From a virus (Duplodnaviria > Heunggongvirae > Uroviricota > Caudoviricetes): a stretch of DNA of 4,345 bases. The position numbers and the translations under genes are program-made. Below are positions 1-4,345 of the stretch, one piece after another. The stretch lies in IMG/VR virus record IMGVR_UViG_2740892487_000004. One strand, written 5' to 3'. Below the pieces are notes generated by a model. That model saw only the letters and a list, made by a program, of their open reading frames with translations, was not told the origin of the DNA and ran no database searches. Numbering within the stretch: position 1 is the stretch's first letter; every line of letters starts with the position of its first letter.

Positions 1-635
1 GCGCTGATTTTCTTACGCCGCAGTTCATCGTGACAGAGCCGGGTGTCGTAAGCGCCGTCTGCCGATGCTGCCCTGATTTTTCTGTGAGTCTGCCGGATAA
101 GACCCGGGAAGCTTCTGAGTCCGTCACATTGTTCAGCGACAGGTCTGCACAGATGATTTCATGTGTGTTGCTGTCAACTGCCAGATGCAACTTTCGCCAT
201 ATACGACGGCGTTCTTTGCCGTGTTTTTTGGACTTTCCATTCGCCTTCACCAAAGACCTTCAGCCCGGTGGAATCAATCACCAGATGCGCGATTTCACCC
301 CGGGTGGGCGTTTTGAAACTGACATTAACCGACTTTGCCCGCCTGCTGACACAGCTGTAATCCGGGCAGCGTAGCGGAACGTTCATCAGGGCAAAAATGG
401 AATCAATAAAACCCTGCGCAGCCCGCAGGGTCAGCCGGAATACGCGTTTAATCACCAGAACGGTGGTGATGGCGAGATCAGAATAGCGCTGGGGCCTTCC
501 TCGTGAAGAAGGTGTTGCTGACTCATACCAGGCCTGAATAGCTTCATCATCCAGTCAGAAAGTTATGGAGCCACGGTTGATGAGGGCTTTATTGTAGGTG
601 GGCCAGTTGGTGATTTTGAACTTTTGCTTTGCCAC
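1..635 (-). pseudogene. IS903-type transposase, disrupted (one in-frame stop and two frame changes); C-terminal part lies beyond window start
   Basis: Start candidate GTG 635..633. An in-frame TGA at 557..555 falls at the position of a Trp in the recalled IS903 protein, within the otherwise matching motif F-[W]-LDDEAIQAWYE. The frame then stays open to a TGA at 176..174. The conserved transposase sequence continues only after a +1 shift near 222-232 and a -1 shift near 103-115. Confidence 0.75.
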
Positions 636-712
636 GGAACGGTCTGCGTTGTCGGGAAGATGCGTGATCTGATCCTTCAACTCAGCAAAAGTTCGATTTA
701 TTCAACAAAGCC
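500..712. repeat. Left arm of a 213-bp inverted repeat (IS903-like end), partner at 4135-4345
   Basis: The reverse complement of 4135-4345 aligns with 500-712 with 2 substitutions and 2 single-base indels (about 98% identity by hand alignment). The right arm stops at the window end, so the true repeat is probably longer. Confidence 0.9.
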
Positions 713-1143
713 CCGTTGCGCTTAAAGTTCCGCAGTTAGTTCCCATAGCCACAAATGAGGAGATAATTCCGCGCTTACCTTTTGGCGCATATTCCGCCAG
801 CATCGTACCGGCACCGGAAATTTCCGCACCTGCACCCAATCCCTGAATAATACGCAGCGTCACCAGCAAGATGGGGGCAAAAACACCAATCTGTGCATAG
901 GTCGGTAACACACCAATTAAGGTGGTACAGATCCCCATCATGGTGATGGTAATAAAGAGCACTTTTTTACGCCCTATTCTGTCGCCCATTTTGCCGAAAA
1001 TAAATGCTCCGACAATACGCGCCACATGACCTGCACCGTAGGTTCCCATTGCCAGAATTAACGCCATTGCCGTTGATGATTCAGGAAAAAAATATTTCAT
1101 GAAACACTAACGCTGCGCCGAGCGAATATAACTGGAAATCCAT
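713..1143 (-). pseudogene. ydfJ: MFS transporter (metabolite:H+ symporter family) N-terminal remnant, ydfJ-like; frameshifted and truncated by the IS
   Basis: Track ORF 702..1100 (-) reads MKYFFPESSTAMALILAMGTYGAGHVARIVGAFIFGKMGDRIGRKKVLFITITMMGICTTLIGVLPTYAQIGVFAPILLVTLRIIQGLGAGAEISGAGTMLAEYAPKGKRG..., typical of the N-terminal helices of MHS transporters such as ProP, KgtP and ShiA. Its last residues and stop (704..702) lie inside IS sequence. Upstream in another frame, 1143..1084 encodes MDFQLYSLGAALVFHEIFF, which fits the conserved DF-x-x-Y...FFP motif. The two frames join if the 7-base homopolymer at 1086-1092 were 6 bases. A TGA at 1149..1147 precedes it, so about 40 N-terminal codons are missing. 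The gene symbol comes from recalled synteny with ydfK-pinQ-tfaQ-stfQ. Confidence 0.7.
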
Positions 1144-1748
1144 AATTCACAGGTGTTTTTTTTCCATCCTGTGGTTTCCTTGGCGTTTTCTAGGTTTTTT
1201 CAGATAGTTGCATTTTTTAAAAAGCATCCTAAGTTCGATCTCAGTGTCTATCTGGGGCCTATTTCTGTCCCATATATGCCCAAAAAAAAACTCCCCAACA
1301 GATAAGTAGTTTTTTCATGGATTTATGCGTAAAATCAAGAACGGCTGGAAATCATTCAATACTCACACTATCGAAAAATTTACCAGCCAACCGCAGCACG
1401 TTCTTGCATAAGGCGTGTCTGCGGTTTTTCAACTATTCAGATACATCACTCCCATCACATTCATTCCTCCGCATCAAAGGCATATAGGCTATATCACCTT
1501 GATATTTTTATTTTTCAGATAAAAACTGTTATCTATGTATACTTTTAAACCCAATCCGTGTAGAGTCTCTGCATAAGATAGTTTGCAGTTGCCGCTTCAG
1601 CTTGCGCCATAAACCGCCTGATTTTTGCTGCCACCTGTTAGCATTCCTGTATACCTGAAACGACAATGTTTATCTACGAACTTTAAGAACACCCAAGATA
1701 AAAATTGTCAACTATATCATATATAACACATTACTAATTCGAGGCTAT

Positions 1749-1862
1749 ATGAACAGCATACTGATAATCACATCTCTCCTTATCATATTCAGCATTTTTA
1801 GTCATGCCCTAATAAAATTAGGGATTGGCATATCCAATAACCCAGACAAAACCGATGTATAA
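1749..1862 (+). CDS. Candidate small hydrophobic protein (37 aa, probable single transmembrane helix)
   Basis: ATG at 1749 is preceded by GAGG (1741-1744) with a 4-nt spacer. The product [37 protein letters not shown] has a hydrophobic core and a polar tail. It is below the size cutoff of the supplied ORF track. No homology could be checked. Confidence 0.3.
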
Positions 1863-1930
1863 GTCAACATATCCTGAATCAGACATACAATATCGCAATG
1901 AAAATCAATAATATTTTAAGGAATATCTTC

Positions 1931-2164
1931 ATGAAATCAAAAGACACCCTAAAGTGGTTCCCTGCGCAGCTTCCTGAAGTAAGAATTATCCTAGGGGATG
2001 CTGTAGTGGAAGTAGCAAAACAGGGAAGACCTATCAATACCAGAACATTGCTTGATTACATTGAAGGAAACATAAAGAAAAAATCATGGCTGGATAACAA
2101 AGAATTATTACAAACAGCGATATCAGTTCTTAAAGACAACCAAAATTTAAATGGTAAAATGTAA
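1931..2164 (+). CDS. ydfK: YdfK/YnaE-family small prophage protein (77 aa; family recalled as cold-shock inducible)
   Basis: Track ORF 1898..2164. The ATG at 1931 has AAGGA at 1918-1922 with an 8-nt spacer, whereas the ATG at 1898 has no Shine-Dalgarno sequence, so I favour the 77-aa form MKSKDTLKWFPAQLPEVRIILGDAVVEVAKQGRPINTRTLLDYIEGNIKKKSWLDNKELLQTAISVLKDNQNLNGKM. Its position between a ydfJ-like gene and a pin-tfa-stf module matches the recalled Qin arrangement; ynaE is the Rac paralogue. Confidence 0.7.
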   Translation: MKSKDTLKWFPAQLPEVRIILGDAVVEVAKQGRPINTRTLLDYIEGNIKKKSWLDNKELLQTAISVLKDNQNLNGKM

Positions 2165-2329
2165 TATAATAAACTTACTTTTTTATCATTTTTCCACTTT
2201 AACAACATTTTGCTCCACTTTTCCACGACCAAACAACTTGAAATCTGGTTAAAATAACACGCAACACTATTCTTCTTCCTTGAGTCCGCCCGGAACTCGA
2301 AAAACAAACCGAGTTAAAGCCATTTTTCA

Positions 2330-2343
2330 CAAAATCGATTTTG
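2330..2343. promoter_or_regulatory. Perfect 14-bp palindrome CAAAATCGATTTTG inside a roughly 26-bp imperfect dyad, about 140 bp upstream of the recombinase gene; candidate protein-binding site
   Basis: Direct reading of 2323-2350: TTTTTCACAAAATCGATTTTGGGTCTCA. Function is inferred only from position and symmetry. Confidence 0.25.
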
Positions 2344-2480
2344 GGTCTCACCAAAATTACGGGGTTGCATACGCATTCGTTTATTTTCGAACGTGTACAT
2401 AAAAATATGCACAAAAATAATCAAAATTATTTTCTGAGATGCATTATGATATGAACACCAATTTCGTATAGAGTCTCACT

Positions 2481-3071
2481 ATGTCTCGAATTTTTGCTTA
2501 CTGTCGGATATCAACGCTGGATCAGACCACCGAAAATCAACGCCGGGAAATCGAAAGTGCAGGTTTTAAAATCAAACCTCAGCAAATAATCGAAGAACAC
2601 ATTAGCGGCTCAGCAGCAACCAGTGAGCGTCCTGGTTTTAACCGGTTGCTTGCTCGCCTGAAATGTGGTGATCAATTGATTGTGACAAAACTGGATCGCC
2701 TTGGTTGTAATGCAATGGATATCAGGAAAACAGTGGAACAACTGACCGAAACAGGTATCAGAGTGCATTGCTTAGCATTGGGGGGCATTGACCTGACCAG
2801 TCCAACAGGAAAAATGATGATGCAAGTAATTTCAGCAGTCGCTGAATTTGAACGAGACCTTTTACTTGAACGCACTCATTCCGGGATAGTAAGAGCCCGG
2901 GGCGCAGGGAAACGTTTTGGTCGACCACCTGTGTTAAATGAAGAACAGAAACAGGTGGTATTCGAACGAATTAAGTCAGGTGTAAGTATAAGTGCCATTG
3001 CCCGGGAATTCAAAACCTCGCGGCAAACCATTTTAAGAGCCAAAGCAAAACTTCAGACACCTGACATATAA
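2481..3071 (+). CDS. pinQ: Serine recombinase of the resolvase/invertase family, PinQ/PinR-like (196 aa)
   Basis: Full ORF. The N-terminus [20 protein letters not shown] carries the catalytic-serine motif R-I-S-T-x-D-Q. GRPP at residues 147-150 and a C-terminal helix-turn-helix ([18 protein letters not shown]) are typical of the Gin/Hin/resolvase family. Length and context match E. coli PinQ/PinR as recalled. The Shine-Dalgarno sequence is weak (GAG 2471-2473). Confidence 0.9.
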
Positions 3072-3168
3072 AAAATAATCTCGGTGTGAGATGCTTTACG
3101 TCTTCCAAGCCACCTTCCTTGCCGTAAATGGAAAGATACATCTAATTATAGAATTTATATGTTTTACC

Positions 3169-3744
3169 CTACGGCAGTGCTGGCCATTCAATATCCTGTG
3201 CAGTTGACGTATCAACACGGTTCAGCAATACCCGATACTTTTTCCATGCTTCCAGCAACGAGATTTCTTCCTCCGTTGCAATTTCCAGATCTGCAGCATC
3301 CTGAAGCGGCGCAATATGCTCACTGGCTACCTGCATCAGGCTGTTTTTTGTTTCTTCCGCCTCCCGGATCCGGAACAGTTTTTCTGCTTCCGTATCCTTC
3401 ACCCAGGCTGTGCCGTTCCACTTCTGATATTCCCCTCCCGGCGATAACCAGGTAACATTTTCCGGTAACGGACCGAGTTCAGAAATAAATAACGCGTCGC
3501 CGGAAGCCACGTCATAAACCGTTTTACCCCGATGATCTTCAACGAGATGCCACGATGCCTCATCACTGTTGAAAACAGCCACGAAGCCTGCCGGAATATC
3601 TGGCGGTGCAATATCGATACTGTTTGCTGGCAGACCTGTATGAGGCGGAATATATGCGTCACCTTCACCAATAAATTCATTAGTTCCGGCCAGCAGATTA
3701 TAAATTTTTATGGTCCGTGGTTGTTCACTCATTCTGAATGCCAT
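3169..3744 (-). CDS. tfaQ: Phage tail fibre assembly protein (Tfa chaperone, 191 aa)
   Basis: Full [52 protein letters not shown]..., recognised as the TfaQ/TfaR/TfaE family. Its ATG (3744..3742) overlaps the stop of the upstream tail fibre ORF (TAATG), consistent with translational coupling. Confidence 0.9.
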
Positions 3745-4133
3745 TATGCAAGCCTCACAATATAGTTAAATGCGATGTTTTTGACGGTGTTTTCCGCGTT
3801 ACCAGCAGCGTTAACGGTGATGGTATGTCCATGTGAACCAATCGCAACGGAGTGCGTATGAGCACCAATACCGACAGTATGTGCGTGTGCACCTGCGCTT
3901 GCAGCAGTACCCGATACAGAGTGCGTATGAGCGCCTGCAGAAGAAGTGTTAACACTGTATTTAGAATAATCAGGTGATCCACTTCCCGGAGCACCACTGG
4001 AACCACCTGAAACAAATGTCATCGAATGGGTATGTGCACCGGCTGAAGCAGCCGTACCGCTAACACTATGGGTATGCGCACCAGTGTTATTCGTGGATTT
4101 AGTGCCGTAATCAAACGACGATGTGGTTTTCGT
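3744..4133 (-). pseudogene. stfQ: Side tail fibre protein, C-terminal 129-codon remnant; 5' part removed at the IS junction
   Basis: Track ORF 3744..4223 (-). Residues 31-159 ([37 protein letters not shown]...[11 protein letters not shown]) are typical of the lambdoid side tail fibre C-terminus with His-x-His repeats. Residues 1-30 ([30 protein letters not shown]) are encoded by 4223..4134, which is IS903-like terminus sequence, so there is no native start. Confidence 0.8.
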
Positions 4134-4134
4134 C

Positions 4135-4345
4135 GGCTTTGTTGAATAAATCGAACTTTTGCTGAGTTGAAGGATCAGATCACGTATCTTCCCGACAACG
4201 CAGACCGTTCCGTGGCAAAGCAAAAGTTCAAAATCACCAACTGGCCCACCTACAATAAAGCCCTCATCAACCGTGCTCCATAACTTTCTGGCTGGATGAT
4301 GAAGCTATTCAGCCTGGTATGAGTCAGCAACACCTTCTTCACGAG
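4135..4345 (+). mobile_element. IS903-like insertion sequence, partial copy B, inverted relative to copy A; runs off window end
   Basis: 4135-4153 is GGCTTTGTTGAATAAATCG. GTG at 4212 opens [21 protein letters not shown], then the frame breaks at TAA 4279-4281: copy B lacks one base relative to copy A in GGAGC-CACGG and another in CAGG-CCTGG. Confidence 0.85.

Follow-up and report, generated by a model that had tools for sequence, protein, structure and literature searches.

Apparently recent IS903-group insertions in a Qin prophage remnant of Escherichia coli and the probable technical origin of their transposase frameshifts

Introduction

When two insertion sequence (IS) copies in one stretch of DNA both carry broken transposase genes and differ from each other, are the insertions old, or are the lesions recent, or perhaps not real at all? 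The question is raised by a stretch of 4,345 nucleotides, referred to here at its full length as the window (IMG/VR virus record IMGVR_UViG_2740892487_000004), in which two partial IS903-like copies, A and B, are found. An original prediction, made from the letters of the window, held that both copies were inactivated and that their accumulated differences argued for old insertions, or for copies that had diverged from each other by the time they were acquired.

Elements of the IS903 group are already well known, and so are their variants and the pseudogenised copies that turn up occasionally. IS102 of pSC101 and IS903 of Tn903 are ~1057 bp long, with 18-bp inverted repeats, a single DDE transposase open reading frame (ORF) and a 9-bp target duplication, traits also of the intact strain 81 variant described below. 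By the ISfinder convention, isoforms share ~95% nucleotide identity or more. Members of the IS903 group have been described as >94% identical to one another (PMC12670165), and the same source, citing Mollet et al. 1985, gives IS903B as the IS903 variant in Tn2680.

Results

The window is the ydfJ-ynfT-ydfK-pinQ-tfaQ-stfQ' end of the defective Qin prophage, from an E. coli very near strain 81. Between positions 713 and 4134 the Qin gene order ydfJ'-ynfT-ydfK-pinQ-tfaQ-stfQ' is present at 99.9% identity, collinear with annotated Qin regions, and a Qin end collinear with these positions is present in many E. coli chromosomes. Strain 81 (NZ_CP088131; L001) is collinear with window 1-4134, and on the stfQ' side strain 1008S19 (L004) is collinear as far as 4134. 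The two partial IS903-type copies (1-712, minus strand; 4135-4345, plus strand) are inverted with respect to each other and separated by 3,422 bp; the 5' ends of their transposase genes point inwards, and the 18-bp inverted repeat GGCTTTGTTGAATAAATC stands at the inner side of each.

Between the two copies lies first a fragment of ydfJ (713..1143, minus strand), an MFS transporter pseudogene at the Qin boundary by the annotation of strains 81 and 1008S19, which is truncated by copy A and whose A run at 1086-1092 is one base too long; this added A, at 1086, is a further frameshift in the pseudogene. Four intact genes follow, namely ynfT (1749..1862, plus strand; from its ORF and the annotation of the collinear strain 1008S19), the cold shock protein gene ydfK (1931..2164, plus; ORF and annotation), the serine recombinase/invertase gene pinQ (2481..3071, plus; Pfam Resolvase and HTH_7, and annotation) and the tail fibre assembly gene tfaQ (3169..3744, minus; Pfam Caudo_TAP, and annotation). 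The segment closes with stfQ' (3744..4134, minus), the C-terminal portion of the side tail fibre gene of Qin, recognised by the Pfam Phage_fiber repeat and truncated by copy B.

Some features of the segment were observed in passing. Within 3847-4082 the tail fibre fragment holds four copies of a 20-nt direct repeat encoding the GAHTHS motif, which is the Pfam Phage_fiber repeat. A 21-nt direct repeat, 81% identical between its copies, occurs at 1549-1569 (ACCCAATCCGTGTAGAGTCTC), upstream of ynfT, and at 2457-2477 (ACCAATTTCGTATAGAGTCTC), where it ends 4 nt from the start codon of pinQ; it could be a common regulatory or recombination site. A search of the window with a loose consensus found no Gin/Hin-type crossover site for pinQ, and a promoter and terminator scan gave nothing bearing on the IS lesions.

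Copy A (1..712, minus strand) corresponds to IS positions 1-712 of the ~1056 of the IS903-group variant found in strain 81 and is cut off by the left end of the window. Its 18-bp terminal inverted repeat (IRL), GGCTTTGTTGAATAAATC, was read directly at 695..712 (minus strand) and is identical to the ends of full-length copies; the span 1-635 to which its lesions had originally been assigned therefore takes in only part of the IS, which ends with this repeat at 712. Next to it, at 713..721, lies one of the two repeats of the target-site duplication, the 9-bp ydfJ target CCGTTGCGC, which is GCGCAACGG on the opposite strand. Strain 81 carries, at this 9-bp target and in the same orientation, an IS with an uninterrupted 969-bp ORF (322 aa, WP_077778729.1; L001 6009-7064), and GCGCAACGG flanks it on both sides, a clean 9-bp target-site duplication of the ydfJ insertion.

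The lesions of copy A were called against this intact twin, from which it differs at three of 712 positions, all of them lesions. A TGA replaces TGG at 555..557 (minus strand; C to T at window 555), which is Trp42 in the 322-aa numbering and Trp27 in the classical 307-aa numbering. A +1 frameshift at 230..231 (minus; G to GG, codon 150) adjoins a T6 run, and the shifted frame terminates at a TGA at 176..174. A -1 frameshift at 110..111 (minus; GG to G, codon 190) restores the original frame for window 110..1. The TGA at a Trp position and the +1 and -1 changes that had been proposed from the window were thus all recovered by comparison with strain 81.

Copy B (4135..4345, plus strand) corresponds to IS positions 1-213, and its transposase gene reads rightwards out of the window. 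The 18-bp IRL lies at 4135..4152 (plus) and, at IS position 51 (window 4185, plus), the copy has the T of IS903B (Tyr7), the corresponding base of copy A, at window 662, being C (His7). Called against IS903B in two other genomes (L002, L003), its lesions are two 1-bp deletions only, with 211/213 positions matching. Both are losses of one G from GG on the plus strand, at 4274..4275 in codon 37, leading to a TAA at 4281-4283, and at 4311..4312 in codon 49, adjoining a CCTGG site. The ORF of copy B runs over 4167..4283 and ends at that TAA, two bases to the right of the position first reported for it (4279-4281). The two deletions were correctly foreseen, but they do not both lie within the first 30 codons; counted from the annotated TTG start they fall in codons 37 and 49, and from the classical start in codons 22 and 34, which leaves one of them within that limit. 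The 9-bp target type at the copy B site is putatively GTTTTCGTC. Copy B sits at the edge of a short palindrome (4116-4135; 6-bp stem CGACGA...TCGTCG), the last base of which is the first base of the IS.

Read literally, the claim that an intact transposase is encoded by neither copy inside the window holds, as both ORFs are interrupted there; the catalytic C-terminal third of the protein lies beyond the window. A naturally split or frameshifting transposase gene, which had been named as a reason why the ORFs might only seem broken, was rejected on inspection of the closest relatives, which carry one continuous, uninterrupted 322-aa ORF. That of the intact twin matches Pfam DDE_Tnp_1_5 (E = 4e-40) and DDE_Tnp_1 (E = 6e-33).

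Aligned with each other, the copies differ in exactly four columns of 213, the number originally counted: the C/T pair at 662/4185, the two deletions of copy B and the A/G of the TGA. Three of the four are private lesions, and only the C/T pair is a polymorphism between IS variants. The alignment to IS903B and IS102 that had been recommended was also carried out. Over 712 bp copy A shows 92.6% identity to IS903B and 93.7% to IS102 of pSC101, and its intact twin at full length shows 94.1% and 94.9%, respectively. Across IS positions 1-214 copy A differs from IS903B solely at position 51, where its C is the allele of both the strain 81 variant and IS102, whereas from position 215 to ~680 there are ~50 differences, a ~10% divergent block in which they are mostly spaced by three bases, pointing to third codon positions. 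Because the differences are so unevenly spread, copy A is classed as a mosaic IS903-group variant. In the full-length comparison of the strain 81 variant with IS102, 14 of the 53 mismatches are located within the initial 213 bp, a stretch over which it is IS903B that the window copies match.

The strain 81-type variant (WP_077778729.1), carried by E. coli strain 81, NN5, Combat11I9 and plasmid pEco_M21816_274, is alike to copy A over 712 bases once the three lesions are set aside; copy A departs from it in W42* and the +1/-1 frameshift pair, and the outer 344 bp of copy A lie beyond the window. Assignment of copy A as an IS903B isoform failed on its 92.6% identity over 712 bp and the ~50 differences at IS positions 215-680, and its assignment as IS102 was ruled out by the 93.7-94.9% identity. 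NCBI files the WP_077778729.1 variant as 'IS5-like element IS903B family' despite ~94% identity to IS903B. Copy B is consistent with IS903B (WP_000654812.1) over its visible 213 bp, identical to it apart from the two deletions and including the diagnostic T51 and the same inverted repeat, although only 20% of the element is in view and, with mosaic variants in the group, the remainder could be of either type. Membership of the IS903 group and IS5 family is otherwise ordinary: the 18-bp inverted repeat is found at the inner ends of both copies and at the outer end of the intact twin of copy A, the 9-bp target duplication accompanies the copy A insertion as seen in strain 81, and identities to IS903/IS102/IS602 above 94% are reached by the strain 81 variant (94.9% IS102, 94.1% IS903B) and by copy B (211/213).

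The notion that the copies were diverged when acquired is accordingly borne out in part. Copy A is a distinct mosaic variant, and copy B has the IS903B allele at IS position 51, the only informative site. Besides strain 81, two chromosomes and a 274-kb plasmid each have one locus annotated with intact WP_077778729.1, and identity to copy A reaches 99% or more in 41 records, so that the strain 81 variant is a homogeneous, recently active population.

The ends of the window were also compared with the sites at which the variants differ. The right end, 4345, is IS position 213, two bases short of the first variant-distinguishing site (215), and the left end is IS position 712, 10 bases short of the next one. 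The window may be a contig that halted at an assembly-graph fork, in a genome holding both IS variants.

The flanking DNA bears directly on age. The interior (713-4134) departs from strains 81 and 1008S19 alike at only four positions, with no ordinary substitution in 3.4 kb. All four are confined to the three longest homopolymers that the window contains; the chance of every one lying at a run of 6 or more is ~8e-7. The tracts are an A7 run at 1086..1092 (A6 in every compared reference), a T8CC tract at 1156..1163 (T6CCC in the references, T7CC in one genome) and a CCC-A9 tract at 1282..1290 (CCCC-A8 in the references). Each of these homopolymers is longer than in the nearest genomes, and the tracts vary among other E. 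coli assemblies, so that slippage in nature, instead of error, may account for the interior differences.

A search of 5,426 complete E. coli genomes gave no instance of the copy B insertion site, and a 37-mer spanning the stfQ/copy B junction was absent from GTDB representatives and JGI metagenome contigs. Being unique to the window sequence, the copy B insertion is young, a strain-specific event that postdates the split from strain 81. As the ydfJ insertion of strain 81 is intact, with a clean duplication, the lesions of copy A must have arisen after insertion or not be real. Taken from the sequence comparisons, both insertions thus look recent rather than old. A slow build-up of inactivating mutations and mutual divergence in old insertions, as originally favoured, would explain why both visible copies are broken and why 4/213 positions differ, yet it is scarcely plausible: the same ydfJ insertion is intact in strain 81, the interior has no ordinary substitutions, the copy B insertion occurs solely in the window sequence (0/5,426 genomes), and the differences themselves reduce to three private lesions and one pre-existing polymorphism between IS variants.

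IS903 transposase prefers to act in cis (Derbyshire, Kramer & Grindley 1990, as cited in PMC12903888). A freshly inserted copy is therefore expected to be intact and, going by that citation, the proposal that the two copies could be mobilised by transposase supplied in trans is weaker than when it was first made.

The lesions were also looked for elsewhere. Across the IS903-group copies in the 5,426 complete E. coli genomes, not one of the four IS indels (110/111, 230/231, 4274/4275 and 4311/4312) recurs, and the best E. coli genome matches to both indel test segments were still two differences from identity. Seven lesion- or junction-specific ORFs were looked up as exact proteins among 153 billion gene positions, and none had been called as a gene there; look-up of a 41-aa ORF matched only genes truncated at contig ends, which is uninformative on the TGA. 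The TGA allele itself was found in 5 of 2,258 matching E. coli records, all plasmids of one lineage in which it is annotated as 'internal stop'. Among PLSDB plasmids, at least 5000 in number, a single one has it, and the GTDB species representatives lack it altogether. On E. coli plasmids these W42* IS903B copies adjoin a DUF6404 gene (L011, L012 and L013, each at 1688-2656), and the one in strain 167 follows immediately downstream of blaCTX-M-14 and ISEcp1.

One reading of the TGA is that copy A did not acquire it in place but received it through short-tract gene conversion, the donor being a defective copy of the IS903B type, for example of the plasmid lineage beside blaCTX-M-14. Homology would be provided by the first 214 bp, almost identical in both variants, and the plasmid copies bear exactly the TGA allele. 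However, at IS position 51 and again from 215 on, copy A retains the alleles of its own variant, which confines the tract to less than ~164 bp, and with so rare an allele an independent G to A change or an error is simpler. We regard such a conversion as highly unlikely.

Discussion

We consider it most likely that the window holds two recent, ordinary IS903-group insertions and that the four frameshifts are uncorrected consensus errors. In outline, copy A, the mosaic variant encoding WP_077778729.1, lies in ydfJ at the 9-bp target used in strain 81, and copy B, IS903B-like at its visible 5' end, is a newer insertion in the tail fibre pseudogene. The underlying elements would be intact, ordinary DDE transposons of the cut-and-paste or replicative kind that give 9-bp target duplications. 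The lesions that break their transposase genes are private single-base changes, and the frameshifts, each of which adds or removes a single G at a G/C doublet, would have been left uncorrected in repeats, as is typical of long-read or flow-based assemblies. A sequencing-error caveat accompanied the original prediction, and for the four frameshifts it has become the leading explanation.

The window has nine private differences in all, comprising six 1-bp indels, two run-boundary substitutions, each of which lengthens one run and shortens its neighbour, and a single ordinary substitution, the TGA. Their density is 4.7x higher in the IS parts (5/923 bp) than in the interior (4/3,422 bp), a contrast of modest significance (Fisher p = 0.025), and such an excess in the IS parts is expected where polishing fails in repeats. 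In long-read bacterial assemblies, residual errors are mostly indels and persist in repeats where short-read polishing fails (PMC8812927). The neighbouring public assemblies contain changes that likewise look error-like or hotspot-related. In that of strain 81, the closest one, five genes within 6 kb are 'frameshifted' (L001 7067-12720) and error-like indels are clustered, and in strain 1008S19 the 'internal stop' of ydfI (L004 ~468) is a CCAGG to CTAGG change at a Dcm site. Methylation-motif errors were rejected as a shared cause of the IS lesions, since only 4311/4312 adjoins CCTGG and none lies at GATC.

Some observations speak against a technical origin. The IS indels are in two-base runs, which are not the classic long-homopolymer error sites, and the TGA has no homopolymer association and matches an allele that circulates in plasmid-borne IS903B. 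At least this one lesion may be genuine; the TGA could be either a rare allele that is real or an error, while for the four IS indels a technical origin remains the most likely.

The possibility that all of the lesions are real and recent, with point mutations having inactivated both copies after insertion and left two immobile relics, is the main rival and is judged rather unlikely. Settings such as a mismatch-repair-deficient (mutator) episode or relaxed selection could be imagined for it, and natural mutators do occur in E. coli. The presence of the TGA allele in independent plasmid records annotated as pseudogenes is in its favour, as are the interior changes in long A/T runs, classic slippage sites that are variable in other genomes, and the fact that two of the three substitutions are C to T transitions. 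However, mutation-accumulation studies of both wild-type and mismatch-repair-deficient E. coli give a substitution-dominated spectrum, from which six indels against three substitutions lie far away. Four of the indels affect runs of two bases, in which slippage seldom happens, and none of them has been seen among thousands of other copies. Real mutation would also have spared 3.4 kb of largely non-functional flank from any ordinary substitution, while striking the repeats more densely than the unique DNA.

A joint reading combines real lesions with the gene conversion described above, so that a dead inverted pair of IS copies, its TGA derived from plasmid IS903B, forms a fixed bracket round pinQ-tfaQ-stfQ'. 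The bracketed segment could then be a compound-transposon-like unit, mobile solely through trans transposase from other copies or, alternatively, the product of an intramolecular replicative inversion. Like a Tn903-type compound transposon, the window has two inverted IS903-group copies around a segment, here of 3.4 kb; unlike it, the passenger is in native chromosomal order and the copy A junction is that of a single, ordinary insertion which strain 81 also has. The plasmid, phage and genome records searched contained no such IS-bracketed unit in another context, and we hold this joint reading to be very improbable.

The biological weight of the locus is small, the insertions lying in a Qin remnant with no evident consequence. 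A minor use is that the variant of copy A can be told from the 'IS903B family' under which NCBI places it, being only ~94% identical to IS903B. Lesion counts in IS copies are unsuited as a measure of their age, and frameshifts that are limited to repeats beside otherwise identical flanks should be treated first as consensus errors.
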